Source of the DNA: Acidobacteriota bacterium
GTDB taxonomy: Bacteria > Acidobacteriota > UBA6911 > JACQSX01
DNA length: 64,000 nucleotides
Direction of reading: 5' to 3'
NCBI GenBank assembly: GCA_016211105.1
Contig: JACQSX010000010.1
Coordinates: 212,913 to 276,912 of the forward strand
Made by a program: the position numbers and the translations under genes. Positions 7,101 through 29,690 of the stretch are shown here, piece after piece. The stretch's first letter is position 1; every line of letters starts with the position of its first letter. Below the pieces are notes generated by a model that was given only the letters and a program-made list of their open reading frames with translations, was not told the origin of the DNA and did no database searches.

Positions 7101-7300
7101 AAATCAGGATTCAGCTTCTGAAGAGAGGATCTCAGTTTCGGAACCAGCACAACTTCTTGCGTCGTCGTGCGTCCGAGCGTTGCGCTGTCGCCGCCACATT
7201 TCTCGTAAAAGCAGTTCGCCGCCTTCCAGTCCAATTCCTCAAACAGCGCGATTGCCGGCCGCTCGATGAGGGCGTCTTCGGAGTACCCGCCAGGCATCAT
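4127..7300 (-). CDS. hsdR: Type I restriction enzyme R subunit (HsdR)
   Basis: 1057 aa; Walker A HTQGSGKTYAMMFF; DEAH box IIMTDEAHRTQ; sits downstream of hsdS/hsdM. Confidence 0.9.
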   Translation of the reverse strand: MMPGGYSEDALIERPAIALFEELDWKAANCFYEKCGGDSATLGRTTTQEVVLVPKLRSSLQKLNPDLPSGTIDLAVEQLTQDRSALNPVVANREVYRLLKDGVHVTITDENGAQETETVRVIDWDNAGNNDFFLASQFWIAGEIYKRRVDLLGFVNGLPLIFVELKAVHKNLKNAFDKNLCDYKSTIPQLFWYNAFIILSNGSESKVGTMTAPWEHFSEWKKISSEEEPGIVSLETAIRGTCEKTRFIDILENFILFTTEFGPLVKILAKYHQFLGVNNSIRALAQIKQNQGKLGVFWHTQGSGKTYAMMFFSQKVLRKIPGRWTFVIVTDRDDLDTQIYEKFANASLVIEPDVHATSSAHLRQLLSEDHRHVFTIIHKFRTERGQRHPVISARSDVIIMTDEAHRTQYDILAKNMRDALPKAAFLAFTGTPLIVGEEKTRDVFGDYVSIYDFKQSLDDRSTVPLYYENRIPELQLTNKDFNGEMEALLENAELDEEQEKKLEREFSRQYHLITRDDRLETIAEDIVAHFMGRGYRDKAMVVSVDKATAVRMYDKVRKHWQQHLANLRKQLVTTSEGPQREELEEKIKYMAETDMAVVISQSQNEIEEMKKKGLDILPHRQRMVKQDLDRKFKNADDPFRIVFVCAMWMTGFDVPCCSTIYLDKPMRNHTLMQTIARANRVFRDKVNGLIVDYVGVFRNLQKALAIYGSGHGGTIGGGETPVLSKDRLVELLRAAIERVEAFCSDHGVNADKIREAVKFERVRLIKDAAEAIMVNDQTKRQFLFMVSDAVRLFRAILPDPRGNEFLERRNVVAVIAERIKSLAPQADISGVMDDVEKLLDRSVAAEAYVIGHQSGEEKEERYVDLSQIDFEALKERFAVSRKRTETERLRSLVEQTLEKMLRMNRTRVDFRDRLQKMLDEYNSGAINVEIFFKQLLEFAKELNVEEKRAISESLTEEELAIFDLLTKPEMDLTQKERGQLKKVAKDLLGTLKSEKLILDWRKRQQSRAQVLVAIQDVLDKGLPEKFGPELFNGKCELIYQHVYDSYPGEGRGVYAAM

Positions 7301-8526
7301 GCCATCGTCGCCTCTGTCTTGATGTCCATCTCGGACACATCAATCTCACCTGAAATCAATCTTGGAAGAAGCAGATCGCGGGTTTGGCGGAGAGCAAACG
7401 TTTTCTTCGCAAGAACATCAATAAACTCGAACAATGGTCTTACTGTTTCACCAAACGACTGCGACATCTTCGACGGTGCCGTCACGATTGTCTTCGCTGT
7501 GAGCTCGGTCCAATGTCGCTTGTACTCTTGGGTCGTCACGAGATCCCGTACGAGGAAAAATAAGTAGTAAATGGAAAAGCCCTCCTGTCCGATGAAGGGC
7601 ACCACGTTCGGGCCGATAGAAAAGGGCTCGACCATCAGCCTCATTTTGCAGGTGTGGTCACCAAAGGCAATTACGGGATTTTCAGGCGAGGCCAGATGAT
7701 CGGCGTTGTTATCGTGAAATCCCAAAAGCTCATCTCGCGATTGGTCAATCACTGGCACCGAGCCGACTGCATTAACTTCAGATTCAATATAGACGGTCCC
7801 GGCCTTCAGCCGCTTTAGAACTCCCCTGACTGTCTTAACCTCCCACCCCTTCGGAATCAGCCCCAGCTCCGAGTCGACCATCTTCACGTTCTCGTGTCCG
7901 GGGAAACGAAAGTCGACGAACCACTCTCGGTAAATCCTCTGCGCCATCTCGTCAAGAATCTGGATTCGGCGGATGTTGTTCTCGATGAGCTCGTCGTAGG
8001 CGGAAAGGATGGCGGCGATCCGCCGCTGTATCGGGAGCAGGGGAATTTCAATTGGCTCACGCTCTGAGAATGTCGTCCACTGGAAACGAGCCACGCCGGT
8101 ATGCTGCGTGTGATACGCGTGCATCAAACCAGAGGCATAGAGTTGCTGGAGATACCAGAACATGAATTCCGGGTCGCAAAGCTTGGTGTTGAAACGGATG
8201 AAGCGACTGAAACTTGCGCACGTGAACGGAAGCTCGGACCGTGAGAATAACTGTGGGCGAAGCAAAACCGTTCGACCAGTGATTTGATCCTTCGTTCCGC
8301 CAGCCGCTTCGATTATCAGATCCCACGGCTGAAGCGTTTTTCTCTCGGCAATTCGCTTGGGAATATGACGCCGTGGAGTTGAAGCAGCGTTGCCGAACCG
8401 CACGTTCTCGAAGTCCGTTCCCCGGATTGCGAGCATTTCAACAGAGTCCTTGAACGGCTCGCCCTTTCCCCACTCTCCATCTTTTGAGATGGTGATAAGG
8501 TCTTTGAGAACGCACTCCATCGTCAC
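7297..8526 (-). CDS. hsdS: Type I R-M specificity subunit (HsdS)
   Basis: 409 aa with two target-recognition-domain-like halves, lying between hsdM and hsdR; 4-bp start/stop overlaps on both sides. Confidence 0.85.
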
Positions 8527-10076
8527 GCCTCCAGAATCTTCGCGACGTTGCGCGCAATCGTCTCTTGGAGGCTAAGCGCCTCAGCGTTCAAGAGTTCCAA
8601 TTCCTCGCTGAGCTCTTCAAGCCTTTCGCTGAAGTCAAAGTCATCGGCGGCACGCTCGGTTACGCCGACGTACCTTCCAGGATTCAGGCTCCAGCCTTGT
8701 CCTTCAATCTCTTTTATAGAAGCGACCTTGCAAAGCCCAAGAACGTCACGATATTTGCCTTTGGGAAAATGCTCCTCAACTAGCGCCTTGCCCCCTTTGA
8801 AAGTTTCGATTGATTCGTCACGGTAAAGCCGAACGATATTTGCAATAAACTCAATTTGCGCCGGAGTGAACTCCCGGTGAGCCCGATCAACTTGCGTGAA
8901 AATATGGCGGGCGTCGATAAACAGGACTTTGTTCTTCCGCTCCGTCTTTCTTTTCCCCTTGTCGAGGAACCAGAGCGTGCACGGAAGCGTAACGGTGTAA
9001 AAGAAATTTGCCCCGACGGCGATCATTACGTCGACGCCTTGCTCTTCGATCAATTTCCTCCGAATCTCCAACTCTGAGCTGCGAGCGTCGCTTGCAGAAT
9101 TGGCCATGACGAATCCGGCGCGCCCTTTGTCGTTCAGCGACGACCAAAAGATTTCGATCCACAGATAATTTGCTTTATCGACACGGGGGAGGCCGAGGCC
9201 GAAGCGTTTATCGTCCTTGAGCTTTTCCTTGTCGACGCCATCCACGTTAAACGGAGGATTCGCCATGACGAAATCGAACTTGCCGAGGCTGCGGTGCTCG
9301 TCTTCATAATAGGAATTGCCCTGCTTGATGTCGCCTTCCAGGCCGTGAACGGCCAGGTTCATTCGGCACAGCCTCACGGTCTCTGCGACTTTTTCCTCGC
9401 CGTAAATCGAGATCTCGTCTGGTGTTTTCTGATGGCTCTTTACGAAGTCCGCGCTTTGGACGAACATGCCGCCCGAACCACAAGCAGGGTCGAAAATCTT
9501 TCCATGAAAGGGCTCGATGACCTCGACAATCAGCCGAACCAGAGACCTGGGCGTGAAGAATTCGCCGCCTCTTTGTCCTTCAGCCATTGCGAACTTGCCG
9601 AGGAAATATTCATAGGTCTTTCCGAAAACATCACCCTCGAAATCCATCTCAATCTTGGAAAATGTTCTCAAAAGGGCAACCAGCGTGTCGTTCTCCAGCC
9701 GGTTGTAATCCTTTGGCAGGACCCCTCGCAGCTGCTCGTTATCCTCCTCTACAGATTTCATCGCCTCGTTAATGTCCTTGCCGATGTTGGCGCCCTCGGG
9801 TAAATCGAGCAGGCGTGAGTAGCGGGCTTTTGCCGAAATGTAGAGGACACCCCGGGCGTGAAAATCAGTTTTCGAAATGGCTTTTCGACGAGAGCCGGCA
9901 CCGCCCTTTTCAAATTCCTTGTTCAGAACCGTGAACTTGTGGTCGGCGTATCGCAGGAAAATGAGACCGAGAACCGGAACCGCATATTCTGACGACTTCA
10001 GACGAGAATTAGCCCGGAGCTGGTCTGCGGACTCCCACAGGCGCTTCTCGATTTCGGAATTGTTGCTGACTGCCAT
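8523..10076 (-). CDS. hsdM: Type I R-M N6-adenine DNA methyltransferase (HsdM)
   Basis: 517 aa; the N-terminal HsdM_N-like region and the NPPFN catalytic motif ([10 protein letters not shown]). Confidence 0.9.
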
Positions 10077-10161: not shown

Positions 10162-11997
10162 TCATCGTTGTGCCTCGGCGCCCAGGCGGGATGGATTCCA
10201 GATTTGCTCCGCAAGTTGTCGGTACAATTCGTGCCTGGCGTCAAGATCAGTCTTCAAGAAATCCTTGTGGGGCTGAAAGGGCAATCCCGATGCCTTAGCG
10301 TACTTTGCAAAGCCCGGATTGTGCTTGTAGCAGTTTGGGTGAAGAGATTTAGCGAGAATGTTCTGTCCGAAGTAGTGCTCCAGTTTCTTCTCGTACGTGA
10401 GGTCGCCAAAGCTCGCGTTGAACGTTTTTGGCAGGAGCAGCAGGCCACCGAACCGGTTACGGTACTCGGCAAAGTCGGCAGGATGGTCGAATTCTGCCCT
10501 GTGTCGCGAGAACTTGTCCGCCCAGATATGCTCGACCTCGTATCCGTGTTTACCCTTGCCCGCAATGTAATCCATGAAATGGCTGTCTAGCCCACTCTCC
10601 CGCTCAACGTGATCAACCATGCGGGCGAGCAGTTGCTGGATCGTGTGCCGATTTTGTTGGTGAAGCGCGAACCGATCGTTCGATGCGAAAGTCTCGCCGT
10701 CACTTTCGAGTCGGTCCTTGAGGATCGTCACAAGTTCCCGCGGTGATTTGCCCCTGATGTCACGCATGACTAAGAACATGGAGTACTGAACAGTCGAGTA
10801 TGCGATGCTGCGGAAATTCCAGAGGCGGCGTGCCAGAAGAATATCGACGAAAGCCGCAACGATTCGGAGCTTCTTGTTGATCAGCTCATCGGAATCATCC
10901 GGCTTCAGCGGCGAGAGAAGGAGCGGGTACTGGAGCGTGAAATCGTGCCGTGCGTTATAGAAGATTGTTTCGAGTCCGGTTGTAAGCTGTTGAGACGCCT
11001 GGCGTAGGCGAAGATATTGTGTCGCGTAAAACGCAAAATCGCGGGCGATGAACGTGACGAATTCTGCGCTCTTTTTGAGCCCAAGGTCCTTTTGATGTTC
11101 CCTAACCCATCGATGGAATTCTGTACCGAGACGGTCGAAGTCTCCTGGAAGTGCGCCTTTCTTTCGTTCACGAATCGTCTGGGCGTACTGCGAACGAAGC
11201 CACGTCTTGACGGCGTCAGCATCTTCATCTTTGCCCAAATCGATCAGCGTACCGACCCGCTCCTTCCAGACGGCGTTGGCATCCAACCGCTTTTGCTCGT
11301 CGGTGATGTTCGCCAGAAGGAAGCCCTTGAGCATGTCAGTAGGACTCAAAGACAAGCCGCGGTCGTTCATAGTCTCGAAAATCGTGTAGGCGTCCTCGTC
11401 GGTGTATGCGGTAATCTCGACGAGATGAACATTTTCAATGAGCCAGTCCAGGAAGTACGGGAGAGCTTCACCGACGAGATCGTCGGGGAAATACTGCTGG
11501 ATGTCATGGTAGCGTGCCAGGATATTGCGGACGGATTCCGGCTGGTCCGTGTCGTCAAACGGGTGCCCGGCAAAGAGCGCCTCCATACAAGGGCGCCGTT
11601 CCTCCACGTCGAGGTTGAAGGATTTCTTTGCAAATTTCTCTGAAAAGATGAGTTCGTCGATTGGAACCTTGTCAGTGCGGGTTTTCTGAAGATTGTGCAG
11701 ATGAATCAGCATCAGCGTCAGAGTCGTGAGCCGTTGCTGCCCGTCGATAATGAAGCTGTGCCCGTTCTTGTGGCTGATAATGATCGAGCCCAAAAAGTAA
11801 TGACCGTAATCAGCAACTTCTGACCGCTCGTGACTCGGCCGAAAATCCTGGAGGAATTTACTGGCCAGGTCGTCTATCAGCTCGGTAACTTGTTTGGTTT
11901 GCCATTTGAATTCTCGCTGGTAGTAGTCGATAGCGTACTTTGCGCCCGCCAACAATTTGCGGACTGTTTTCGCTTCCCCGTCGATTTTCTTCATCAC
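10162..11997 (-). CDS. GmrSD-family Type IV restriction endonuclease (DUF262 ParB-like NTPase N-domain + DUF1524 His-Me nuclease C-domain)
   Basis: FIIDGQQRLTTL (the DGQQR motif of DUF262); C-terminal HGYEVEHIWADKFSRH (DUF1524 HNH-like motif). Confidence 0.8.
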   Translation of the reverse strand: MMKKIDGEAKTVRKLLAGAKYAIDYYQREFKWQTKQVTELIDDLASKFLQDFRPSHERSEVADYGHYFLGSIIISHKNGHSFIIDGQQRLTTLTLMLIHLHNLQKTRTDKVPIDELIFSEKFAKKSFNLDVEERRPCMEALFAGHPFDDTDQPESVRNILARYHDIQQYFPDDLVGEALPYFLDWLIENVHLVEITAYTDEDAYTIFETMNDRGLSLSPTDMLKGFLLANITDEQKRLDANAVWKERVGTLIDLGKDEDADAVKTWLRSQYAQTIRERKKGALPGDFDRLGTEFHRWVREHQKDLGLKKSAEFVTFIARDFAFYATQYLRLRQASQQLTTGLETIFYNARHDFTLQYPLLLSPLKPDDSDELINKKLRIVAAFVDILLARRLWNFRSIAYSTVQYSMFLVMRDIRGKSPRELVTILKDRLESDGETFASNDRFALHQQNRHTIQQLLARMVDHVERESGLDSHFMDYIAGKGKHGYEVEHIWADKFSRHRAEFDHPADFAEYRNRFGGLLLLPKTFNASFGDLTYEKKLEHYFGQNILAKSLHPNCYKHNPGFAKYAKASGLPFQPHKDFLKTDLDARHELYRQLAEQIWNPSRLGAEAQR

Positions 11998-12317
11998 TCC
12001 ACCTCAGAAAGCAGGCAGTGTTCCACTTCATTGACGTCGGGCATTAGCTCCGGAATTGACATCGTTTCCATCCACGGCAGCGACTCTCTTGAGATTAATA
12101 AATCTTTCTTGTTCTTATGTTTACAGGCGATTTCCAAAAAGTAAACCTCGCTGCGCCAAGTATACTCCAACTGCTCGGACATGCTCCAGCCAACGCAGAT
12201 GCGCTCCACGACGGCGGAAAGAATTAAATAGAACGATTCCGACCCAGGCACTTCGGGCGTTAAAATGGCTTCTACCAGTGGCGCCGTCCCGCCAAAGACA
12301 AAATGGTTAACAAACAC
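11994..12317 (-). CDS. small hypothetical protein (107 aa) translationally coupled to the GmrSD gene
   Basis: Its stop overlaps the GmrSD start (ATGA); no recognised motif. Confidence 0.35.
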   Translation of the reverse strand: MFVNHFVFGGTAPLVEAILTPEVPGSESFYLILSAVVERICVGWSMSEQLEYTWRSEVYFLEIACKHKNKKDLLISRESLPWMETMSIPELMPDVNEVEHCLLSEVE

Positions 12318-14708
12318 ACGCTTTCACCGGCTCAGTGGACAAGGTTTTGGAACCGCCTCGAAGTTTACGTGCGAAAGCGAGGCCGCATTCTGAAGCACTA
12401 CAATCCGAAGAAGGAGTATCCGGCGCTCAAACAAGTCGGAGTTGGTGTCGAGGAAATCGACCGTGTACGCAAAGCATTCGCGACTTACCATGACGAGCTT
12501 CTTTTCCGAAAGTTTTCCCTCTTCTTCCGCAGAGACCCGCCAACTATTCAGCGCTGGACCGGGGCCGCAGACCCGTCAGCCGCTTTCATCAGACTTTTTC
12601 ATATTTTTCAGCGCAATGAACTCCGCAGGCTCGAAAAGCGGTTTCAGGAGCTTTTTCTCCTCCACAAGCTCAATGAAAAAGGAGAGGGGCGAAAGTATGA
12701 GGCAGCTCACGGCCGCAGCGGTTCGGTTTTAAAGTTCGATCCTGTAAGATTTTCGCGACTTCTGAATAGGCGCGATGAACGGGCCAGCTTCACGGTTCTG
12801 CCCAGGATCCAGTTCGGCGAATGGACCATCCTGCCGCTCTTGAAGAAGGGTTCAGGCAGTCCCGTTTACAAATTCATCAAACTTGACAAGAAGGACCGTA
12901 AGCTCCTGGTTCGAATTTCAGCAGACTCTCCCAAGGAAATCGAACTGATCCGATCCGTGTTGAACAACGCCTTCAGGATCTACCTCGACACGCCCCAGGT
13001 GCATGCCACCTTCGACAGGCTGGCTCAATTTCTCAAAACCGGGGATGCAAGCCATTTCCTACTGACGGGCGGAACATACTTTCACGACGAGTATAGGATT
13101 TCGGTACTGCCGAAATATGGCAGGCCGCAGAACATCGCGAGCTGCAGCTCTTACAGCGGCCGGCTTGCGAACGTCTCAAAACCTGAAGCCGTTTTCACCC
13201 AGATGAGGCTCCTTCACAAGGAAATCCGCGCACGCAGTCAAGTATTCATCGATTTTCGGACTCCGCAGAGCAGCAGCATCATCGGAGCCGTTCTTCTCAA
13301 TCTGAACGATCGCCGCCTCAATTCTGAGGAGCGGGAACGCATCGCTCGGGATTTCCGAAGCGATTTTGAATTGCCGTTAAACGAGTTTATCGAGTACGAG
13401 GACGTGCCCGAGGAAGACGTCTACAAGAAGCTGCTACAGAACATTCCCAAGCAACCAACTGAATTCGAGCTGCGGTCAGAGCGCTCCCTGCGAATTTACC
13501 GAGAATTGGTCAGCGCCGGGCTGCTCCCGTGGAAGGTCCAAACCAACCAGGCGAGATTTTGTACAAAGCAGGATTGCCGGGCCGCCTACCAGACCAAATA
13601 CAACCAGAAGACCTGCCCTGTTTGCGGAGAGAACATGCTCGCGGGCAGAGCCACGGTCGTTGAGGACATTGACGAGAAGAGAGTTGCTGACTTCGCGGCC
13701 ACAATCTGCCAGCAACTCGGTTTTCAGACGACACAATTCAAGCGGCGCCTGCTGACTCGGGACATTTTGGTTGTGGAAATCAGGAATGGAGACGACTTCA
13801 TTGAGCTTGTACCCATCAGCAAAGCGTTAACGGATAATCAGACCGAGATTCTTCGCCTTCGGTACCCCAGCCTGGTACTGTTGACGTCGAGAGACGACGC
13901 TGCGGAGCTCAGGCAAAAGCATTTCGAGACCAGGGAGCTCTCCAATTTTGCGTACTCAGTCCGCAAACCCGGCGCTCAGGCGTACGTCAAGCGGTTGCTC
14001 GCTGACTCCAGAGGCGAAAGGCCCACCCACTTGACGAATCATGCAAGTGGCTGCCGTTTGCGGTTCGTAGATGACTCCGTGTACCTCGAAAAGAACAAGG
14101 CTTCCAAAAACTTTGGCGCAGAGTTGTTTGAGGCCGACTGCTCCGTTTTGCTCAGTTGCATTTTTGGCAATTCCATCTGGCTCGGCGCCCGAAAGAGGGG
14201 AAAGGCGCTGCCTGACGGAGTGACCGCTTTTCCAGTCACGGGAACAAGAAACGGATGTTTCGTGTGGGATGCAAAATTCAGTAGTACCGACAGGGTTGTC
14301 CTCGGGAGCCACGACAAGAATAGAAAATATATCAGCGAAGCGAGAGCCAATGAAACCGTCGCAGCAAATGGCGGCGTCAAAGGATTCCTCTTCGTCGGCA
14401 ACAAGCCGGCACCAAAAACATTTACGGGGCTGTCGCGACAGCTTGTTGGAAACAAAAGAATTAAACTATCCTATTGGGAAATGAAGCACTTGCGGACGCT
14501 GTTTGACCACTTCAGGGCGCACCAGACCGTCATCAACAGCAACAATGACGTCCGGGACGTGTTTGTTGATGCCGTCAAAGAGCTGCTTTTCAAGACGGCC
14601 GGCCGCAAGAGGGCATTCGCGATGACCGACGAGTTTCTCGACGGAGTCATGACGAGGAGCGCTGACGAGTATCAGAGGTTGGCCGGAGCGCGACAACTGC
14701 ACGCTTGA
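12303..14708 (+). CDS. large hypothetical protein (801 aa) with a central zinc ribbon and a C-terminal nuclease-like D...DAK motif; candidate defence gene
   Basis: CTKQDCRAAYQTKYNQKTCPVCGENM (CxxxC...CxxC). C-terminal ELFEADCSVLL...GCFVWDAKF resembles PD-(D/E)xK spacing. Divergent from the GmrSD operon. Confidence 0.55.
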   Translation: MVNKHTLSPAQWTRFWNRLEVYVRKRGRILKHYNPKKEYPALKQVGVGVEEIDRVRKAFATYHDELLFRKFSLFFRRDPPTIQRWTGAADPSAAFIRLFHIFQRNELRRLEKRFQELFLLHKLNEKGEGRKYEAAHGRSGSVLKFDPVRFSRLLNRRDERASFTVLPRIQFGEWTILPLLKKGSGSPVYKFIKLDKKDRKLLVRISADSPKEIELIRSVLNNAFRIYLDTPQVHATFDRLAQFLKTGDASHFLLTGGTYFHDEYRISVLPKYGRPQNIASCSSYSGRLANVSKPEAVFTQMRLLHKEIRARSQVFIDFRTPQSSSIIGAVLLNLNDRRLNSEERERIARDFRSDFELPLNEFIEYEDVPEEDVYKKLLQNIPKQPTEFELRSERSLRIYRELVSAGLLPWKVQTNQARFCTKQDCRAAYQTKYNQKTCPVCGENMLAGRATVVEDIDEKRVADFAATICQQLGFQTTQFKRRLLTRDILVVEIRNGDDFIELVPISKALTDNQTEILRLRYPSLVLLTSRDDAAELRQKHFETRELSNFAYSVRKPGAQAYVKRLLADSRGERPTHLTNHASGCRLRFVDDSVYLEKNKASKNFGAELFEADCSVLLSCIFGNSIWLGARKRGKALPDGVTAFPVTGTRNGCFVWDAKFSSTDRVVLGSHDKNRKYISEARANETVAANGGVKGFLFVGNKPAPKTFTGLSRQLVGNKRIKLSYWEMKHLRTLFDHFRAHQTVINSNNDVRDVFVDAVKELLFKTAGRKRAFAMTDEFLDGVMTRSADEYQRLAGARQLHA

Positions 14709-15062: not shown

Positions 15063-15296
15063 ATGGCAAAGAAACCGGTTCACATAGTTCCACGAGATAA
15101 CGGCTGGGCAGTTCGGCGGGAGGGCGCTCAGCGTGATTCTTCACATCACGATACCAAGGCTGATGCCGATAAGGTTGGCCGGCGGACCGCTCAGAGAGAC
15201 CACACCGAGTTGGTCACCCACGGCAAAGACGGGAAGATCCAGGATAAAGACAGCTTTGGGAACGATCCGTTTCCGCCACGGGACACCAAGCATTGA
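15063..15296 (+). CDS. DUF2188 family protein
   Basis: HIVPRDNGWAVRREGAQRDSSHHDTKADA...VTHGKDGKIQDKDSFGNDPFPPRD matches the DUF2188 pattern as I recall it. A TATACT -10-like box and a GGAAGGAAG RBS lie upstream. Confidence 0.7.
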   Translation: MAKKPVHIVPRDNGWAVRREGAQRDSSHHDTKADADKVGRRTAQRDHTELVTHGKDGKIQDKDSFGNDPFPPRDTKH

Positions 15297-15306
15297 CATC
15301 AACGCG

Positions 15307-16230
15307 ATGGAGACGTCCGAGAAAGCTGCAACATCTGACTGGTTTGACCTCGGGGCAAAAGCCCTCCGCCAAACTGTAAAAGATCTGCCAGAACTGTACG
15401 CGTGCCCGCTGTGTCTTCATGGATTCGAACGTGAACAGATCGGCTATTTGACCAGGGAGCATGTTCCCCCAGCCTGCTTTGGGGGAGAAAAACTGATCCT
15501 GACCTGCGGGGAGTGCAACACGAGGGCCCGACATTCAATCGATGCTGAACTCGGCAAATTCATCCATCTCAGGAAGTTTGTTCGCCGAGAAATGGATGAG
15601 ATGAGGCAGTACAAGGTGACGATGAACGGGACAACCGCGAATGTCCTCGTGCGGTTTGGCTCAGACAAATGTGAAGTCGTCGATTTCTCAAACAGAAACA
15701 GCCCAGTCGTGAGCGCCGACCTCAGAAACCACCTCGACATTGCCTCGGCCACGGCCAGCCTGGACTGGGGTTTTAAAATGAGCCCAGTGCAGGATAGATA
15801 TCGAATCGGTTGGCCTGAAGTCAGCCTGCTGCGCGCCGTGTATTTGGCTGCGTTTGCAAAGTTTGGTTACGCCTACATTATGCGACCGGCTCTTGACACG
15901 GTTCGGAAGCAGATCCGACAGCCCGAAAAGAGGCTCATCAAGTATTTCCTGACGCCAGTCGTGGACGCACCCGACGAGACACGAGTCATCGCTTACGTGC
16001 AAAAGCCCGAATGGATGCGCTGCCTCATGGCTCAGATCGGCCAATTTCGCATTTTCCTGCCGTTTTTTGACGAGGAAGCTTCCCTTTACAAGCGCCTGAG
16101 CGAGGCACACAATAACCGCGAGAAAACCAAAGTCAGCGCAACCCTGTTGCCGTGGCCTCGCACTCCCGAGTTTCTTCTCGACTTCCACAAGGCTGCTGTT
16201 GTGCGGCGGCTCCGGCCCAGCGACTCTTAA
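15307..16230 (+). CDS. HNH-endonuclease-like protein (about 307 aa)
   Basis: CPLCLHGFEREQIGYLTREHVPPACFGGEKLILTCGECNTRARH has the CxxC...H...CxxC arrangement of an HNH/His-Me finger. The start is placed at ATG 15307, just after the DUF2188 stop, rather than at the overlapping ORF-track start 15133. Confidence 0.5.
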   Translation: METSEKAATSDWFDLGAKALRQTVKDLPELYACPLCLHGFEREQIGYLTREHVPPACFGGEKLILTCGECNTRARHSIDAELGKFIHLRKFVRREMDEMRQYKVTMNGTTANVLVRFGSDKCEVVDFSNRNSPVVSADLRNHLDIASATASLDWGFKMSPVQDRYRIGWPEVSLLRAVYLAAFAKFGYAYIMRPALDTVRKQIRQPEKRLIKYFLTPVVDAPDETRVIAYVQKPEWMRCLMAQIGQFRIFLPFFDEEASLYKRLSEAHNNREKTKVSATLLPWPRTPEFLLDFHKAAVVRRLRPSDS

Positions 16231-16596: not shown

Positions 16597-17595
16597 ATGA
16601 CAACAGTCGACGCGGAGGTAGTGAGTGGGCTTGAGCGGGAAATCGAGGTCGAGACTCTGAGCATGCCATCTACGCACCCTCCGAGATCCTACGCGGCTCA
16701 CAAGACCGGTAGTGGAGTGACGTACTGCGGCTCTGCCGAGAGAGTACTAACGTCGTCAATCGGCAGAAAGCTTAAAGGTAAGGTACAGCTCATTTTTACG
16801 TCTCCGCCGTTCCCGCTGAATCGAAAAAAGAAGTACGGCAACCTGCAGGGGGAAGCCTACGTGAAATGGTTGTCCGCTTTTGCTCCACTTTTCAGGGATC
16901 TCCTGAAAGAGGATGGATCCATAGTAATGGAGCTTGGAAATGCATGGCAACCTGGCGAACCGGTAATGTCTACACTCGCGCTCAAAGCGTTGCTTGCATT
17001 CCTTGAAGAGGGGAAATTTCATCTCTGCCAACAATTCGTCTGTTACAATCCTGCTCGTCTCCCAAGCCCGGCTCAATGGGTAAATGTCGAGCGGATTCGC
17101 GTCAAGGATGCTTACACGCACGTATGGTGGATGGCACCTTCGGAGCGCCCCCAGGCTGACAACAGGCGTGTTCTGAAAGAGTACAGCCCTGCGATGCTGA
17201 AACTTTTATCTTCCAAAAAATACAACTCAGGAAGGCGGCCTTCGGAACACAAGATTGGTTCAAAATCATTTTTTCAGAACAACAACGGCGCGATTCCGTC
17301 CAACGTCCTCACGTTTGCAAACACGAACAGCAATGACCAGTACTCAAATTACTGTCGCCGAAACAATCTCAGACTTCACCCAGCGAGGATGGCAATCGGC
17401 TTGCCTGAGTTTTTCATAAGATTCCTGACCACGCCAAAGAACCTCGTCGTGGACCCATTTGCCGGGAGCAACACTACAGGGGCAGCTGCGGAAAGGCTAA
17501 AGCGCCGCTGGATCGCCATAGAGCCCAACAACGAGTACATTGCCGGCTCTGTGGGACGTTTTCCGGGACAGGAAGTGTATTCCAATGACACCTGA
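16597..17595 (+). CDS. DNA methyltransferase, beta-class N6A/N4C (motif IV before motif I)
   Basis: LIFTSPPFPLN ((S/D)PPF catalytic motif) followed much later by VVDPFAGSNTTG (FxGxG AdoMet motif). Confidence 0.8.
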   Translation: MTTVDAEVVSGLEREIEVETLSMPSTHPPRSYAAHKTGSGVTYCGSAERVLTSSIGRKLKGKVQLIFTSPPFPLNRKKKYGNLQGEAYVKWLSAFAPLFRDLLKEDGSIVMELGNAWQPGEPVMSTLALKALLAFLEEGKFHLCQQFVCYNPARLPSPAQWVNVERIRVKDAYTHVWWMAPSERPQADNRRVLKEYSPAMLKLLSSKKYNSGRRPSEHKIGSKSFFQNNNGAIPSNVLTFANTNSNDQYSNYCRRNNLRLHPARMAIGLPEFFIRFLTTPKNLVVDPFAGSNTTGAAAERLKRRWIAIEPNNEYIAGSVGRFPGQEVYSNDT

Positions 17596-19873
17596 AGAAC
17601 TCTTCGCCCAGCTTGAAGCAGCAACCCAAGTGTCCGAAGTCGAGGCAGCACTCGACACTTTCCTTGGAGTCCACGCAGACAATGTTCGCTGGGTTCCTGT
17701 TGGCCGAGAAAATAATCGCGGAACCATTGAAGCTTCAGCTGACCCCGGGCGGTCCCTTGTAGAGCGGCTCACCAATGGCATTGATGCCGTCCTAGAGGAT
17801 GAACACAAGCTCCACAGTGGCCGACCACTTTGCCGCAGTCCAAAGGAAGCAGCAACCACATGGCTGAATGTCCCAACAGGTGGTCTTAGCGAAATGTCTC
17901 CAACGCAGCGGCGTGCGCTTGCCCAGCGCGTCACAATCAAGTTACTGCCGGGGGATGGCCGAGCTGGCCGCTGCCTTGAAGTCCGCGATTTCGGTATCGG
18001 AATCAAACCAGCAGATATGTCATCCACGATTCTCAGCCTTAATGAGGGCAATAAGCTGCAAAAGCACTATCTGGCAGGAACTTATGGGCAGGGTGGCTCA
18101 AGTACGTTCGCGGTCAGTAAATATACCCTTGTCGCCACAAGGCACGGAGACCATCCCAGCGTTGGATTTACGCTCGTCAAATTCCTTGATCTTCCAGCCG
18201 AAGAGTACAAGACAGGCCACTACGTTTATCTCACCTTTCGAGGCGGGCCTCTTGAGGTCGACCGATCTACGGATGAGTTCCCCGTCGGGACTTCGGTGAA
18301 GCACTTTGGCTACGATCTAAGCTCGTATCCGTCCCCACTGGGACCCAACAGCGTCTACGGCTTGCTCAACCAGGTTCTTTTTGATCCTGTGATGCCCGTG
18401 TGGCTCGATAATCCGGTCAATACCCAGCGTCGCGTCATCAAAGGCTCGCGCAATGCGTTGAACGGCGCCACCGACGAAGGCGACGATAGGCGAGGACCTA
18501 ATCTCTCCCATTCCATGAGGCTGTTCTATGTTTCTCTTGGGGAATTCGGCCGAATCGGAATTGAGTATTGGGTCCTGGAGCAACCGAGTCAGGAAAATAA
18601 GAAACCTGTTGCGGCGTTTGTCAATCCCAACAAGACAACGATTTTCACTCTGAATGGTCAAAATCACGCGGAACTGTCACACACCCTGGTGAAGAAAGAT
18701 GCGGAGTTGCCGTTCCTGACTCAACGCCTCATCTGTCATGTCGATTGTAACTCACTGACGCCCACAGCTAAGAGGGCGCTGTTCGTTTCCAATCGTGAAG
18801 ATGCACGCCGCGGCGTGGTATATGACCTCATCGAGGAGGAACTGATTCGTGTTCTGAAGTCGGATGATGATCTGGCTCGACTAAACAATGAGGCTCGTGA
18901 GCAGAGCATGCGCTCCAGGGACGAGTCTGCTGTACAGCAGATGCGCACAGAAGTGGCACGACTCCTGCGGCTTCAGGGGCTCAATATCAGCGAAGGGATG
19001 GGTTCAGAAGTCGCTCCGCAAGGTCGGGAACCGCATACTCCTACGCATCCTCCACGACCACGTCCAACACCAAGACCTATCGACCTGCACGAGCCCCCGA
19101 CGTACATCCGCCTGGTCTGGAACGAGGACGAGCCTATTACCTTTTATCCAGAGCAAAGACGATATCTCCGAGTCGAAACCGACGCCCACAGCCGTTATCA
19201 CAATCCTGACGATCCAGCCAGATCCGCAATTAACCTCATTGTTACCGGAAATGGCGTGGCAACTCGGGGTTCAACCCCCTTACAAGGCGGGCGACTGAGG
19301 GTAATTTTTGATGCCCTTCAAAATGCCAGCCCCGGCGCCACGGGCATGATTCGAGTTGAACTGACGCGTCAAGGCCTTCCGGCTTTGTCCGACGAAAGAC
19401 CGTTTGACATCCGTGAGCGGCCGCCTGCGCGTCCCGAGGCGAGGCGAATCTCACTGCCACCATTTGAAGTGAGGTCGGTTACCGGCCCCGAGGATGTCCT
19501 ATGGAATACACTTGGCTGGCCGGAGGATACGAACACAGTTGCATCGTCGGCAGTAATGGAGCAGGGCCTGCTAGTCATCTATTTCTCAATGGTCTTTCCA
19601 AAATACGCGGCTCAAAGGGCCAATTTTGAGACACGCGATCCAGCACTTGCGGCCTCATTTGCTGAGCGATACAAGATCTGGCTTGCTGTTCATTCCCTCT
19701 TGCTTTACAGAGACCAGCAGGTTTCAGAACAAACCGAGCAGAGACAGCGCGAGGAAGATCCTGAATTTGAAGAGGCAATTGAGCGTCAGGAAAGATGTCG
19801 GATTGCAACGCTCTCAGCGATGTTCGCCGCCAGGGAGGTTCAGGCACAGTCCACGATGCTCGAATCGGATTAA
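17585..19873 (+). CDS. GHKL-family (HATPase_c/MORC-like) ATPase multidomain protein, translationally coupled to the methyltransferase; candidate restriction or effector partner
   Basis: N-box ERLTNGIDAV, G1 box EVRDFGIGIKPADM, G2 box GTYGQGGSSTF. ATG 17585 overlaps the MTase stop by 11 nt. A Pro-rich linker (PTHPPRPRPTPRP) separates the C-terminal region. Confidence 0.6.
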   Translation: MTPEELFAQLEAATQVSEVEAALDTFLGVHADNVRWVPVGRENNRGTIEASADPGRSLVERLTNGIDAVLEDEHKLHSGRPLCRSPKEAATTWLNVPTGGLSEMSPTQRRALAQRVTIKLLPGDGRAGRCLEVRDFGIGIKPADMSSTILSLNEGNKLQKHYLAGTYGQGGSSTFAVSKYTLVATRHGDHPSVGFTLVKFLDLPAEEYKTGHYVYLTFRGGPLEVDRSTDEFPVGTSVKHFGYDLSSYPSPLGPNSVYGLLNQVLFDPVMPVWLDNPVNTQRRVIKGSRNALNGATDEGDDRRGPNLSHSMRLFYVSLGEFGRIGIEYWVLEQPSQENKKPVAAFVNPNKTTIFTLNGQNHAELSHTLVKKDAELPFLTQRLICHVDCNSLTPTAKRALFVSNREDARRGVVYDLIEEELIRVLKSDDDLARLNNEAREQSMRSRDESAVQQMRTEVARLLRLQGLNISEGMGSEVAPQGREPHTPTHPPRPRPTPRPIDLHEPPTYIRLVWNEDEPITFYPEQRRYLRVETDAHSRYHNPDDPARSAINLIVTGNGVATRGSTPLQGGRLRVIFDALQNASPGATGMIRVELTRQGLPALSDERPFDIRERPPARPEARRISLPPFEVRSVTGPEDVLWNTLGWPEDTNTVASSAVMEQGLLVIYFSMVFPKYAAQRANFETRDPALAASFAERYKIWLAVHSLLLYRDQQVSEQTEQRQREEDPEFEEAIERQERCRIATLSAMFAAREVQAQSTMLESD

Positions 19874-20946: not shown

Positions 20947-21987
20947 ATGCGGAACGAACAACTGATTCGCCAGTGGAAAATCCTGACGCATTTGAGCGCC
21001 TGCTCGGCGGCCGGCTACCGGCAGTTGATCGAAGCGCTGCACCCGGAGGATGCGGTCTCTCTGCGCACCCTTCAGCGGGACTTGCAGGCGCTGGAAATGG
21101 CCGGGTTTGCCTTAGAAACAGAAAGGCATGGCAAGGAGGTCTTTTGGTCGCTGCGGCTCAAACACGGGCTTCCTTTTCCAATTGAAATCCCGGAACTCAT
21201 CGCCTGCTACGCAGCCACCCTTGCGGCTCGCGTCCAAGATCTACCGGAGAGCAAGCACCTTGAGGCGCTCTGTCAGAAAATCATTGCTCCGTTGCCCTCA
21301 AAGACACGCGCGTTTCTTGAGGCGGCCAAACAGGCTTTGCTTGTCTTAGGTCCCGCCGGCTCGCCCGCTGGCGCGGCCAAGGGCAGGATAAATCAGTTCA
21401 CCCGGTGGGCCGTCGAATCCAAAACGGTAGAAATACTGTACGATTCTCTCCACAGTGGACGGCGCCGGTGGCGGCGCGTGGATCCCTACGCGATCATCAC
21501 AACTCCGTCGGGCAGTTATCTCTGGGGATATTGCCAGAGCAGTCGCCAGTTCCGCGTCTTCCACCTGGCGCGGATGCGCGAGAGTCGCCCCACGGGGGAG
21601 GTCTTCAGGAAGCTCGACGTATCCGCACCGGTGGCGTTTCAAGGGAGCTTTGAGATCTGGCAAGGAAAGCCCGAGCCTGTCTGTATCCGCTTTACCGGCC
21701 GCGCCGCCCTACTGGCGGCCGAGAAGCAATGGCATCCGTCGCAGACGATCACAAAAACACGGGACTGCCTTGACCTGCGCTTGACGGTTCATCCGGGAAA
21801 AGATTTGGAGCGCTGGATTTTGGGCTTCGGCGCGGAGGCCGAAGTGATCACGCCGGGATCCCTGCGAGAGCGAATCGCAGCCGAACTGCAGCGGGCAGCG
21901 CAGAGCTATCCTGCGCCAGTTGTGCAAAAGAAGCCGGTCAAGGCGGTCCGCTTGCGGGCGGCTGGACGCGCTCGGGCGGCAAGATAA
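20947..21987 (+). CDS. WYL-domain transcriptional regulator (HTH + WYL)
   Basis: N-terminal HTH-like region; RRVDPYAIITTPSGSYLWGYCQSSRQFRVFHLARM is a WYL-domain signature. Confidence 0.75.
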   Translation: MRNEQLIRQWKILTHLSACSAAGYRQLIEALHPEDAVSLRTLQRDLQALEMAGFALETERHGKEVFWSLRLKHGLPFPIEIPELIACYAATLAARVQDLPESKHLEALCQKIIAPLPSKTRAFLEAAKQALLVLGPAGSPAGAAKGRINQFTRWAVESKTVEILYDSLHSGRRRWRRVDPYAIITTPSGSYLWGYCQSSRQFRVFHLARMRESRPTGEVFRKLDVSAPVAFQGSFEIWQGKPEPVCIRFTGRAALLAAEKQWHPSQTITKTRDCLDLRLTVHPGKDLERWILGFGAEAEVITPGSLRERIAAELQRAAQSYPAPVVQKKPVKAVRLRAAGRARAAR

Positions 21988-26121: not shown

Positions 26122-26682
26122 TTGAATCGAGCTGTCAAGCGTAATATCGGGCGATTCCCCAGCGACTTCGTGTTTCAACTGACGCTTGAGGAAGCGCGTG
26201 ACTTGAGGTTCCATTTTGGCACCTCACGTTTAAGGTCACAAATTGGCAGCTCAGCATTGGGTGGGCGGCATTACCGCCCCTACGCCTTCACGGAACAAGG
26301 CATAGCGATGCTGTCCAGTGTTCTCCGCAGCAAAAGAGCCGTCCAGGTCAACATCGCCATCATGCGCACTTTCGTGAGGCTCCGCCAGATGCTGGCAAGC
26401 CACAAAGATCTCGCCCGCAAGCTGGAAGCTCTGGAGGTAAAATATAACGCTCAGTTCAAAGTGGTTTTCGATGCCATCCGCAAGCTCAAGGAGCCATCAC
26501 CGGCCCCTTCACGACGTTGGATCGGTTTTACCGACAAGGGTGAGGATAGGAATTGGCACCATTACGACGCTCAGGGAACGGCTACGTCAATCGCCATCCT
26601 GGAGACTCGTTGTGCAGTTATCGCGAGGAGGCCTCGCTGTGGTAGAGCGTGGGTCAACCGTAGGGGAAAATTTCTAAGATGA
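26122..26682 (+). CDS. ORF6N-domain protein, N-terminally truncated copy
   Basis: KRNIGRFPSDFVFQLTLEE...RHYRPYAFTEQGIAMLSSVLRSKRAVQVNIAIMRTFVRLRQM. It lacks the about 45 N-terminal residues present in the 22975 copy. Confidence 0.5.
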   Translation: MNRAVKRNIGRFPSDFVFQLTLEEARDLRFHFGTSRLRSQIGSSALGGRHYRPYAFTEQGIAMLSSVLRSKRAVQVNIAIMRTFVRLRQMLASHKDLARKLEALEVKYNAQFKVVFDAIRKLKEPSPAPSRRWIGFTDKGEDRNWHHYDAQGTATSIAILETRCAVIARRPRCGRAWVNRRGKFLR

Positions 26683-28589
26683 TTCATCAATTCGCCGAAC
26701 TTGGGGGTTTTTACCGCGAAAGTGAGGGTATAGGAAACGGCGAGAAAGATCGTCTTGCCCAGTTCGTCCAGGATCCAGCGCAGAAGTTCCGCACGCGTAC
26801 CGTCCTGCTCCTTGTATTCTCTGGCAAAGGCTTCGAGCGCGTGAAGGTTGAGGACTACGACAACAATAGGAAGCTAATCTACCTTTATCGCGGGGGCCCA
26901 CCCAATGGGTGGGACGCGACCCCCACCACTGGCTTGCAGGCGGTGAGGAAGGCCGACGAATTCGATGAAGCGGTTAGAAAGAAACTGGCCCGGCTTGCCA
27001 GGAGTATCGCCGATGCCAAGGATCATGTCGATGGGCCTTCGGAAGCAGAGAAGCCCGCGCTCGAAGTTTTGCATTCCAAGATCGACACTGCAGGTAGTGC
27101 TGGCATTTCCGTTACGGAAGAATCGGAAAGGTTAGGAGCAAAAGTTCTTGCGGCGATCAAGTCCGCTCATCCACCTGAGTCTAAGGAGGCTGCAATTCTT
27201 TCTGTCGCATGGCAGACCACGGATGGGAACATCATGCGGGTCGGTGACTTCGCGGCCTTCCAACAGGCACTAACTCGGCACGGCCAAGGGGCAGCATCGC
27301 ATAAGAAAAGCATCGAGGGCGAGGTCAAAGGCAGGGGCCAGTGCTGCATCTGCGGGAAACTGAACACAGAAGTTTCTGGATTGCTTCAAGTGCCGCAATT
27401 CAAGCTTTACACACTGGATAAACCCGGATCGGTATCAGGTGGATTCAATGCAATCGATGCTTGGCGGAACTTCCCTGCCTGCCGGGAATGTTGCGACAAA
27501 GTCGACTTCGCAGGTGAGCGGATAAAGAAGAATCTCACGTTTGATTATTACTCGACGTTTAAGTACTTGTTCCTGCCCCTGGCTGTTCGCCTGCAGCCGA
27601 CTCTCGCGTTCGACTTGCTCGACCGTCTTATCAGTGCCCGCTTTAACAAAAAAGCCGCGAAACGCCTAACAGCGGCAGAGGACGAGTTGTTTTACGTTGT
27701 CGCTCTGGAGAAGAACTTCCTGCAGGTAGATCTGCTTTTCTATCAACCTGACCCTCAGTCATTTCGCCCAGCTCTTTATATATCGGGCCTTCTGCCATCC
27801 CGTTTTCGAGCACTGTTCGACGCAAAGGATCGTGTTGATGCCCACCCTTGGTTAAACGAGCCGAGTCCCAAGGCTTTTGTACAAGGACAGTTCACGTTCG
27901 GCTCAGTTAACAGGGTCTTTCCCCACGCCCACGGCGGTAGCAATTTCGATGACGACTTCATGGAGGCCACACGAGCAGCCCTTGAGTTACGACCGTTTCC
28001 AGCGACGCGGCTGTTGCAGAGTGGCATGCGGTGGGTTCGGCAAGATTACGTTGGTGGCAAAACATGGCAATATCGACTTGCCGATCTGTTTCGTTCGATC
28101 CTCTTCTTCGAAGAACTTCTGACACTCAGTCAGCAAAGGAGTAACGCAGCTATGCAAATCGATTATGGCAAATCTCCGCAGGCCGACCGCGTTCGCGCAG
28201 TCTTGAAAAATGCAACGGGGAAGCTCAGCACCGATCCGGCGGCTCAAGCAGCCTTTTTGGTTGGCGCCTGTTGCTTTCGAATCGAGCGCCTCCAGGAATT
28301 TGCGCGCGGGTCAACGCCATTCGCTGGCAAACTCAAAGGCTTCCGCCTCAATCAGGCCGATGTCCAGCGACGACTTTTCGTTGCAGCAAAGGACAAGGCC
28401 AAAGCCTACGGTGAAGGCAAAGTCGCCGGATTGCTTGAATGCGCAGGCGCCGCTCTTATGGTGGCGCCTGAGCAGTGGCCGCTTTCGCCCGACGAAGTGT
28501 CGTACTTCTTCGCCCTTGGCCATGCCTTAGGACCGCGATTTGCCAGTGATTCCAACGAAGGCGAGAAAGCCCAAGCAGCAAAGGAGTAG
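26679..28589 (+). CDS. cas8: Cas8 large subunit (family unresolved, Cas8b-like)
   Basis: 636 aa, first gene of the cas7-cas5-cas3 operon. Internal zinc finger CCICGKLN...CRECCDK as in Cas8a/b. Confidence 0.55.
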   Translation: MIHQFAELGGFYRESEGIGNGEKDRLAQFVQDPAQKFRTRTVLLLVFSGKGFERVKVEDYDNNRKLIYLYRGGPPNGWDATPTTGLQAVRKADEFDEAVRKKLARLARSIADAKDHVDGPSEAEKPALEVLHSKIDTAGSAGISVTEESERLGAKVLAAIKSAHPPESKEAAILSVAWQTTDGNIMRVGDFAAFQQALTRHGQGAASHKKSIEGEVKGRGQCCICGKLNTEVSGLLQVPQFKLYTLDKPGSVSGGFNAIDAWRNFPACRECCDKVDFAGERIKKNLTFDYYSTFKYLFLPLAVRLQPTLAFDLLDRLISARFNKKAAKRLTAAEDELFYVVALEKNFLQVDLLFYQPDPQSFRPALYISGLLPSRFRALFDAKDRVDAHPWLNEPSPKAFVQGQFTFGSVNRVFPHAHGGSNFDDDFMEATRAALELRPFPATRLLQSGMRWVRQDYVGGKTWQYRLADLFRSILFFEELLTLSQQRSNAAMQIDYGKSPQADRVRAVLKNATGKLSTDPAAQAAFLVGACCFRIERLQEFARGSTPFAGKLKGFRLNQADVQRRLFVAAKDKAKAYGEGKVAGLLECAGAALMVAPEQWPLSPDEVSYFFALGHALGPRFASDSNEGEKAQAAKE

Positions 28590-28665
28590 CAACATGGCAA
28601 AGAGAAAATCCAGGCCAAAACGCGGTAAGGAGCCAAAGCGTTCCAGAGCCATAAGGAGAAATGCA

Positions 28666-29688
28666 ATGAACAAGTCAATAATCAAAAACCGCACCGAAAT
28701 CTTGTTCGTTTACGACATCACGGATGCCAACCCGAATGGCGATCCAAACGATGAGAACCGCCCTAGAATGGACGTCGAAACGGGACTAGCAAAGGTTTCG
28801 GATGTCCGGCTCAAACGCACCGTTCGCGATTACCTGTACGACTACTCTGGCGAGGAGATCTTCTGCCGCGAGATTGAGAAACCAGATGGCACGATCCAGG
28901 AAGGCAAAGACCGAGCTGAGGACTTCTTCGATCAGGTTGAGGAGGCCGCGAGGAAGAAGGCGAAGAACGTCCTGGAGAAGCGCAACTTGATCCAGGCGGG
29001 CGTGCTGGAGAAGTGCATTGATGTTCGGCTTTTCGGCGCCACAATTCCAGTTGGGAAAATCCCGACCAACAAGAACGAGAAGGATTCCAGTGTCACGCTC
29101 ACCGGCCCAGTGCAGTTTGCAATGGGTAGCAGTCTTCATCGCGTTGAGCCGCGATTCATCAAGGGAACGGGTGCCTTTGCTTCAGGTCAGGGTGCTCAGC
29201 AGAAGACTTTCCGGGAGGAATACGTTCTCCCCTACGCGCTCATCAGCTTCTACGGAATCGTCAACCAGCAGGCAGCCAAAACGACGGGCCTCAGCGCCGA
29301 AGATGTGGAGAGGCTTTACGAAGCGATGTGGTACGGTACAAAGAACCTGATCACACGGTCCAAGATCGGGCAGCGACCCTTGTTGCTTGTGTTGGTCGAG
29401 TACAAGACTGAGAACGCGAACTCCTACATCGGACGGTTGGACCGCTTTTTGAGTCTTTCGAAAGATAACAAGAACGGAACCGTGCCGCGCGATGAAGAGC
29501 TTCGCGAGGTTCAACAGGGCAATCTCAATCTTGAGTCGTTATCTAAAGCCATCAACTCCAGAAAAGAGAAGATCGCGAGAATACGTTTCGCTTGGGATGA
29601 GCGTCTCCCACTGTCGCACCGGCCAGCTAAGTCGAACGGAAAGTGGACGTTCCTTGGATGTCCTGCTGAAAAACTGGAGTTCGAGTAA
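28666..29688 (+). CDS. cas7: Cas7 (Cascade backbone)
   Basis: N-terminal ILFVYDITDANPNGDPNDENRPR is the canonical Cas7/Csh2 motif. AAGGAGAA RBS before ATG 28666; an alternative start at 28594 would add a basic extension. Confidence 0.8.
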   Translation: MNKSIIKNRTEILFVYDITDANPNGDPNDENRPRMDVETGLAKVSDVRLKRTVRDYLYDYSGEEIFCREIEKPDGTIQEGKDRAEDFFDQVEEAARKKAKNVLEKRNLIQAGVLEKCIDVRLFGATIPVGKIPTNKNEKDSSVTLTGPVQFAMGSSLHRVEPRFIKGTGAFASGQGAQQKTFREEYVLPYALISFYGIVNQQAAKTTGLSAEDVERLYEAMWYGTKNLITRSKIGQRPLLLVLVEYKTENANSYIGRLDRFLSLSKDNKNGTVPRDEELREVQQGNLNLESLSKAINSRKEKIARIRFAWDERLPLSHRPAKSNGKWTFLGCPAEKLEFE

Positions 29689-29690
29689 TC

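Follow-up and report, generated by a model that had tools for sequence, protein, structure and literature searches.

A two-gene element was analysed in a 64,000-nucleotide (nt) stretch of contig JACQSX010000010.1, which comes from an Acidobacteria metagenome-assembled genome (MAG) and is called the window below. The first gene (16597..17595, +) encodes a DNA methyltransferase (MTase) of 332 amino acids (aa), and the second (17585..19873, +) encodes a 762-aa ATPase in which a GHKL domain and an S5-fold domain are followed by a novel C-terminal region. The MTase was identified through Pfam, PADLOC, PDB and motif comparisons as a beta-class enzyme of the M.PvuII family. It matches Pfam N6_N4_Mtase (PF01555, E 3.5e-32) and the PADLOC Type II MTase model MTase_II (PDLC03323, E 8.7e-89), and it aligned with M.PvuII (PDB 1boo) over residues 34-325, about 290 residues, at E 2.2e-76. 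TSPPF lies N-terminal to DPFAGSNTTG, which is the beta-class motif order. A first-pass annotation, made from the DNA letters alone, had described a beta-class N6A/N4C MTase with SPPF ... DPFAGSNTTG, and both the PF01555 match and the motifs bear this out. Because of the homology to M.PvuII and the beta-class motif order, N4-cytosine specificity is predicted, and the MTase is likely an N4-cytosine enzyme.

The two genes are tightly joined. The MTase stop codon, TGA at 17593-17595, lies 11 nt inside the ATPase gene, which starts with ATG at 17585, and the overlap from start codon to stop codon (17585..17595, +) reads ATGACACCTGA. Within the MTase gene, 9 nt before this ATG, the sequence AGGAAG (17570..17575, +) can be read as a possible ribosome-binding site. 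The mechanical open reading frame (ORF) of the large protein begins at TTG 17540 and ends at 19873, giving 777 codons, and the first-pass annotation had combined this length of 777 aa with the 11-nt overlap. Since the starting Met of all 32 aligned homologues corresponds to ATG 17585, the true length is 762 aa and not 777, and the overlap holds for the ATG start only. In NCBI the large protein is 100% identical to 'hypothetical protein HY644_02685'. At related loci, the two genes most often overlap by 4 nt (ATGA) or lie 0-4 nt apart. At one locus of a Gemmatimonadales MAG (L013:4834-8298), a PvuII-like MTase and the ATPase form one in-frame ORF of 1,154 aa. The bin was probably assembled from long reads, so that an indel error of the assembly may account for this ORF as well as a genuine fusion, and it was not used as evidence.

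The architecture of the 762-aa protein was derived from a homologue alignment and an AlphaFold2 (AF2) model with a mean predicted local distance difference test score (pLDDT) of 78.3; all of its segments lie on the + strand. Residues 1-33 (17585..17683) form an acidic N-terminal segment of two helices (3-12 and 16-29; pLDDT ~95; net charge -7), which is possibly a dimerisation strap by analogy with other GHKL ATPases. Residues ~34-250 (17684..18334) make up the GHKL (Bergerat) ATP-binding domain, with the N-box at E60/N64/D67, the G1 box at D135-G137-G139 and the G2 box at G165/G168/G170, and residues ~251-405 (18335..18799) form an S5-fold transducer-like domain. In an alignment of 50 family members that are 24-61% identical to the 762-aa protein, N44, E60, N64, D67, D135, G137, G139, K157, G165, G168 and G170 are invariant in the N-terminal part, as are G287, L292, G358, Q359 and R404 in the S5-fold domain and P505 and G569 further on. 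All GHKL boxes (N-box ExxxNxxD, G1 DxGxG, G2 GxxGxG) are therefore present and invariant, and the three motifs named in the first-pass annotation, ERLTNGIDAV, EVRDFGIGI and GTYGQGGSS, were all found in the large ORF. Of the S5-domain positions, the invariant Q359 and R404, together with K396 (basic in 94% of members), are candidate contacts of the ATP gamma-phosphate.

Profile libraries recognise the protein poorly. The 762-aa sequence gave no Pfam match even at E<=10 and no PADLOC-DB v2 family at E<=0.1, the MTase alone of the pair being matched there (MTase_II models), and its single NCBIfam match was a faint sacsin ATP-binding-like one (E 0.032). A phmmer search of the PDB with the single sequence returned MORC3 at a non-significant E of 0.59, and a PDB profile search with the ATPase family returned nearly exclusively GHKL proteins, again at a non-significant E of ~0.1. 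HATPase_c_3, however, was matched by 25 of 50 relatives (best E 4.8e-7). In the fold search, 265-323 residues aligned to the two-domain GHKL+S5 structures 7p8v_B, 5ix1_A, 6mw7_A, 2zbk_B and 2q2e_B, lengths that take in the S5-type transducer as well as the Bergerat domain. The 762-aa protein thus has the Bergerat fold in three dimensions with an S5-fold transducer directly after it, and the closest fold to its N-terminal part is the MutL N-terminal domain. Taken together, the invariant motifs, the HATPase_c_3 matches of relatives and the fold establish indirectly that the protein is a GHKL ATPase. The first-pass annotation had called the GHKL domain clear; this stands on motifs, relatives' profiles and fold, but no library calls GHKL on the 762-aa protein itself. 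The accompanying label 'MORC-like' has to be narrowed as well: the MORC S5 signature GhXhhpXXRhl, searched as a regular expression, was found in 0 of 50 family members, so that the ATPase is MORC-like in the broad paraMORC sense alone. A sensor histidine kinase was rejected, as there is no HisKA or other Pfam match and the GHKL domain lies at the N-terminus with the S5 domain after it. The first-pass annotation had held that full-length homology to a characterised family, such as a sensor kinase or MutL, would speak against a defence module; the resemblance to the GHKL+S5 modules of MutL, MORC, Topo VI-B and Hsp90 type is limited to the N-terminal ~400 residues.

Beyond these domains the protein is far more variable: its C-terminal part shows 20-28% identity, against 35-46% for the ATPase half. 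Residues ~406-466 (18800..18982) form a long helical hairpin or coiled coil (model helices 406-426 and 428-463), followed by a disordered, poorly conserved Pro-rich linker at residues ~467-503 (18983..19093; …HTPTHPPRPRPTPRP…; 9 Pro in 37 residues; pLDDT 30-37). Residues ~504-670 (19094..19594) comprise Arg-rich beta domains, an immunoglobulin (Ig)-like sandwich and a small beta unit, and are a candidate DNA-recognition module. The C-terminal bundle of long helices at residues ~671-762 (19595..19870; helices 672-684, 686-718 and 726-761) is the least conserved part between clades (6-24% identity); by analogy with the C-terminal dimerisation of MutL and Hsp90, it is a candidate constitutive dimerisation element. 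Family-wide, conservation in the C-terminal region is confined to P505 and G569 (both invariant), D533 (90%) and an aromatic residue at 696, where the near-invariant Y696 is exchanged for other aromatics in some members. A fold search with the C-terminal model returned generic Ig-like domains and nothing else. Motif scans of the 762-aa protein found no MutL endonuclease (DQHAxxExxxxE), HNH, GIY-YIG or PD-(D/E)xK motif, so no nuclease was detected by this route, and Pfam, PADLOC, NCBIfam and the fold search likewise gave no nuclease domain or fold. Ten longer relatives (865-923 aa) had no Pfam matches, and thus no extra domains were identified in them.

The family to which this ATPase belongs is large and widely spread. 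A word-indexed search with the 762-aa protein retrieved 761 homologues, and the family amounts to 1,852 clusters at 50% identity with E<=1e-3, or 533 with E<=1e-30; the source names seen for its members were all 'hypothetical protein'. Scanning one genome per species yielded 80 loci, spread over many phyla of bacteria and several lineages of archaea, and pairing was counted on 83 non-redundant loci. Identities of 55-65% link members from Acidobacteriota, Verrucomicrobiota, Bacteroidota, candidate-phyla-radiation bacteria, Micrarchaeota, methanogens and Thermoplasmata, indicating horizontal spread. No match to the ATPase was found in a phage collection, and a plasmid collection gave five weak matches, N-terminal only and annotated 'hypothetical'. 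Two distant N-terminal homologues (~28% identity) lie on a Devosia plasmid (L087, NZ_CP104964.1) and an Ensifer plasmid (L088, NZ_CP101520.1), near DUF4007, class V aminotransferase and PAPS-reductase-family genes and genes annotated 'sensor histidine kinase', a gene set that we take to resemble DNA phosphorothioation (Ssp/Dnd-like) loci.

An adjacent DNA MTase was present at ~75 of the 83 loci. Three homologues on long contigs, in unrelated neighbourhoods, all had an N6_N4 MTase immediately upstream (3/3). In some 40 of the ~46 relatives of >=43% identity, the gene that abuts or overlaps the ATPase start encodes a PvuII-like MTase (E 1e-74 to 1e-152); 25 of 30 adjacent genes in distant clades (27-35% identity) are N6_N4 MTases of other subfamilies. 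The partner MTases fall into at least three sequence groups and may lie upstream of, downstream of or convergent to the ATPase gene. Distances between MTases and between ATPases are correlated (Mantel r 0.51, a value reached in 0 of 2000 permutations), and from this co-variation we infer that the two proteins are inherited together. The first-pass annotation had allowed that the pairing might not be conserved across genomes, in which case it would not be a defence module; ~75 paired loci and the three unrelated contexts show that it is. In close-clade ATPases from three archaeal MAG loci (L012, L048 and L022; Micrarchaeota and Methanoregula), an MTase of a different group lies downstream or convergent, and the identity of the C-terminal region is 38-58%, within the 27-63% range of PvuII-paired members. 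Because C-terminal identity is kept with a different MTase group, Type II-like independent recognition by the two proteins is suggested rather than an obligate complex, which argues against the MTase being an obligate specificity subunit in the manner of Type I or Type III systems.

No further gene belongs to the conserved unit. Clustering of all neighbours revealed no third gene family at more than 5 of 83 loci, and no Pfam family recurred in more than 2 of 124 sampled neighbours of related loci. As no other gene recurs, the unit is a two-gene cassette. Individual relatives show additional genes. In a four-gene operon of Flavobacteriia (L080:5998-11823), the family ATPase has 750 aa and the MTase 417 aa, and two further products follow, one of 262 aa and one of 513 aa that is a HATPase_c_3 (MORC-like) protein; L077 and L079 share the 262-aa protein and the protein of ~510 aa, and the 262-aa protein of L080 has no significant sequence match in the PDB. 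In L076 (9520-10542), a gene for a YhcG/DUF1016 PD-(D/E)xK nuclease directly follows the ATPase-MTase pair, and an ORF homologous to it takes the same position in L082 (4940-5500). UvrD-like helicases were found near 5 loci.

Based on these results, we consider that the pair is probably a self-contained two-gene, Type II-like and ATP-dependent restriction-modification (R-M) or exclusion cassette. This reading is supported because the pair is autonomous and mobile, because the methylase partnership is kept although MTase group and gene order change, and because the genes are tightly coupled with the MTase usually first. A site-specific MTase and a conserved adjacent partner that move as a unit are what characterises Type II R-M, and exchange of MTase groups with varied placement is typical of R-M partners. 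The candidate defence or restriction module proposed in the first-pass annotation is accordingly supported by the conserved MTase pairing and by the lack of a full-length match to anything characterised. It is gene context that suggests a role in defence or restriction, and likewise one in addiction.

In the mechanism we propose, the M.PvuII-family methylase would N4-methylate host DNA at a short site, for which CAGCTG is the obvious, putative guess, and the translationally coupled 762-aa protein would act on DNA without this mark. The GHKL+S5 module would bind and hydrolyse ATP and close around DNA as a dimeric clamp, a proposal based on the analogy to MutL, MORC and Topo VI-B; the Arg-rich Ig-like domains may sense the site or its methylation state, and the helical bundle may dimerise the protein. 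As for the damaging step, the clamp might block or compact unmodified DNA without cutting, as in BREX- or MORC-like exclusion; alternatively, DNA might be cleaved by a cryptic site or by a recruited host nuclease. ATP binding and hydrolysis are the only chemistry predicted to be invariant in the ATPase family.

Several observations weigh against a restriction cassette. The first-pass annotation had asked whether homologues are always next to an MTase, and strong as the pairing is, 5-8 loci (L053, L054, L056, L060, L072 and L042) carry the ATPase without a detectable adjacent MTase, so that unprotected ATPase expression may not be lethal. The neighbours of these solitary ATPases have unrelated functions (PPC-domain proteins, ADP-ribosylglycohydrolase, PfkB, OmpA), and related loci in general are mostly flanked by housekeeping genes, a defence-island context being clear in the window but not at most of these loci. 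Our literature search found no experimental work on a two-gene system of an MTase and a GHKL protein, in agreement with the first-pass statement that such ATPases had not been characterised experimentally. Site counts do not help either. The window contains 10 CAGCTG sites against 19.4 ± 4.2 expected, and the pooled ratio for close-clade hosts of the PvuII-type pair was 0.64, which ranks third among 64 palindromes; at loci with other MTases, taken as controls, depletion was at least as strong (ratio 0.54, rank 1). Because the controls are equally depleted, CAGCTG depletion is uninformative on restriction, and avoidance of the site was rejected as evidence for it. All 10 sites in the window lie in its first 33.4 kilobases (kb), with none in 33373-64000 (30.6 kb).

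Within the window the pair sits in a defence island, flanked by Type I R-M, GmrSD and type I-B CRISPR-Cas genes. At the left edge of the island lie a Hypoth_Ymh (PF09509) gene (392-1210, +) and, after it, an 811-aa ORF without a Pfam match (1654-4089, +). They are followed by a complete Type I R-M operon with overlapping gene ends (4127-10076, -), consisting of hsdR (HSDR_N, SWI2_SNF2, T1RH-like_C; 4127-7300, -), hsdS (Methylase_S; 7297-8526, -) and hsdM (HsdM_N, N6_Mtase; 8523-10076, -), and by a gene for a GmrSD-type (DUF262/DUF1524) Type IV modification-dependent restriction enzyme (10162-11997, -; GmrSD_N E 2.6e-34, with PADLOC HEC-06/Orf5/SspE-like matches). Next comes an 801-aa ORF (12303-14708, +) that matches nothing in Pfam, PADLOC or NCBIfam, and then an HNH_5 ORF (15133-16230, +) of 365 aa (E 1e-6; 29.0 bits against a cut-off of 27.5). 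The latter ends 367 nt upstream of the MTase gene, and the first-pass statement that no HNH endonuclease sits beside the MTase is therefore incorrect. As to a classical restriction endonuclease or a C protein, the small ORFs flanking the pair have no Pfam match. Downstream of the pair are a gene for a WYL/WCX/HTH regulator (20947-21987, +), a type I-B-like cas operon (26679-32715, +) with cas8b/TM1802 (26679-28589) and cas3 (30382-32715), and a short CRISPR-like array with a period of ~73 and 4.5 copies (47123-47451). None of the HNH_5, 801-aa and WYL proteins had a homologue in 86 related loci. HNH_5 is thus not part of the conserved pair, and all three genes were rejected as core parts of the system; the 801-aa ORF and HNH_5 may be a separate, uncharacterised two-gene defence candidate.

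Four more specific explanations were weighed. The absence of a detectable nuclease leaves room for restriction without cutting, in which an ATP-gated MutL/MORC-like clamp would topologically entrap, compact or silence unmethylated DNA; we regard this form of the system as rather unlikely. We give a still smaller chance to a writer-reader epigenetic module, in which the MTase would write N4-methylcytosine and the MORC-like ATPase would read methylated DNA and compact or regulate host chromatin or mobile-element DNA without attacking unmethylated DNA. Such a module would fit the missing nuclease domain, the solitary ATPase genes and the housekeeping neighbours, and in eukaryotes MORCs work at a step after DNA or histones have been marked (Iyer et al. 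2008, PMC2292703). However, the distribution is sporadic with horizontal transfer across domains, the ATPase is retained although its MTase partner changes from one group to another, and the cassette is autonomous and lies in a defence island here. We disfavour the writer-reader module because sporadic spread, MTase swapping and autonomy are hallmarks of selfish or defensive R-M systems and not of host regulators.

It is just as improbable that the ATPase is a MutL-like activator, which would license a separate nuclease (encoded elsewhere, or the upstream HNH_5) as MutL activates MutH or Vsr, that nuclease being the real restriction enzyme. The MutL N-terminal domain as closest fold, the same-strand HNH_5 ORF 367 nt upstream, the adjacency of paraMORC1 and HNH genes (Iyer et al., PMC2292703), the YhcG nuclease gene that follows the MTase in L076 with its homologous ORF in L082, and the UvrD-like helicases near 5 loci are all in line with it. 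Yet no nuclease family recurs among the neighbours, so a dedicated partner nuclease lies outside the conserved system, and since the HNH_5, 801-aa and WYL genes lack homologues in related loci, any combination of a MutL-like ATPase with a nuclease is no more than a local addition. Least probable of all is a cryptic nuclease, in which case the 762-aa protein would cut DNA in an ATP-dependent way at an active site that is novel, varies between lineages and lies in the S5 or C-terminal part: D533 (90% family-wide), E592, D603, H703, E733 and E736 are conserved in the close clade, restriction enzymes are notoriously divergent, and MutL, paraMORC3 and paraMORC5 carry C-terminal nucleases, but P505 and G569 alone are invariant outside the ATPase half, Y696 is replaced by other aromatics, the fold search gives Ig-like sandwiches alone, and DQHA, HNH, GIY and PD-(D/E)xK motifs are missing.

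Among known systems, the restriction cassette that we favour can be compared most directly with PvuII R-M. The MTase is a clear M.PvuII homologue over ~290 residues with a gene-adjacent partner, but no R.PvuII-like or C-protein ORF is present, and where PvuII R-M has R.PvuII, a PD-(D/E)xK enzyme of 157 aa, the partner here is an ATPase of 762 aa. Compared with MutL, which works with MutH/Dam, the 762-aa protein lacks the C-terminal dimerisation/endonuclease domain and its motif, has no MutS context and is only 13-14% identical. BREX blocks foreign DNA without an obvious classical restriction nuclease, and its methylase marks self DNA, which makes it a functional analogy only: there is no homology, and PglZ, BrxC and BrxL are absent from the locus. 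BREX comprises four to eight genes (PMC11974810). VcSduA (GHKL-Shedu, type I-D Shedu; PMC12137116), for which phage defence was shown experimentally, has an N-terminal GHKL ATPase and is predicted to dimerise with a clamp-like middle domain. Like the 762-aa protein, it is a single polypeptide with its GHKL ATPase at the N-terminus; unlike it, VcSduA carries a C-terminal DUF4263 PD-(D/E)xK nuclease and has no MTase partner, DUF4263 being absent from the 762-aa protein.

Methylase-linked defence gene sets also include the five-gene mzaABCDE (Gao et al. 2020), which PMC9523054 calls validated, stating that some methylase-linked systems are highly associated with a MORC-family protein. Five or six genes make up such systems, with AIPR-family proteins and PD-(D/E)xK nucleases among their products, whereas the system described here has two. 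The 2021 PADLOC paper makes no mention of mza. A Deinococcus radiodurans m4C R-M paper was discarded as a precedent, as it concerns a GIY-YIG enzyme and is irrelevant here.

The closest description is the prediction of Iyer, Abhiman and Aravind in 2008, purely computational, that MORC/paraMORC ATPases with GHKL+S5 modules work in R-M systems (PMC2292703), which confirms the first-pass statement that methylase-linked GHKL/MORC ATPases had been predicted then. Their paraMORC1 class has a distinct C-terminal extension beyond S5, and its genes lie next to a MORC gene in helicase-free methylase operons, in some cases together with HNH, while most published MORC/paraMORC neighbourhoods include superfamily II helicases and nucleases (PMC2292703). 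The present family resembles paraMORCs in its N-terminal GHKL+S5 module with intact ATP motifs, its methylase linkage and its sporadic, laterally transferred distribution, and paraMORC1 in particular in the Flavobacteriia operons (L077, L079 and L080), where the order is ATPase, MTase, 262 aa and 513 aa and the 513-aa protein of L080 is a HATPase_c_3 protein, and in the HNH gene upstream of the pair, the last in the window only. It differs from MORC and paraMORC systems in that its conserved core is the MTase and the ATPase alone, and from MORCs in lacking the S5 motif. The family probably belongs to Iyer's paraMORC class, and the published description of paraMORC1 fits it.

A system of this kind had thus been predicted already, MORC/paraMORC ATPases in R-M, and what is notable here is a conserved system without a recognisable nuclease. 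The ATPase family spans bacteria and archaea, comprises at least 1,852 clusters (50% identity) and is absent from Pfam, NCBIfam and PADLOC. It can be addressed experimentally because cultured relatives exist (Flagellimonas beolgyonensis KCTC 23501, Luteimonas aquatica, Gilvibacter sp. SZ-19 and Psychroserpens burtonensis). If the pair restricts, it would represent a large restriction-like family whose effector has an ATPase as its sole recognisable enzyme, and studying it could bring to light a new kind of nuclease chemistry or a way of excluding unmethylated DNA without degrading it. The family bears on the 2008 prediction that MORC-type ATPases began as R-M components, and a nuclease-free clamp, if true, would be a prokaryotic counterpart, and possibly of the ancestor type, of eukaryotic MORC-mediated silencing of foreign DNA.

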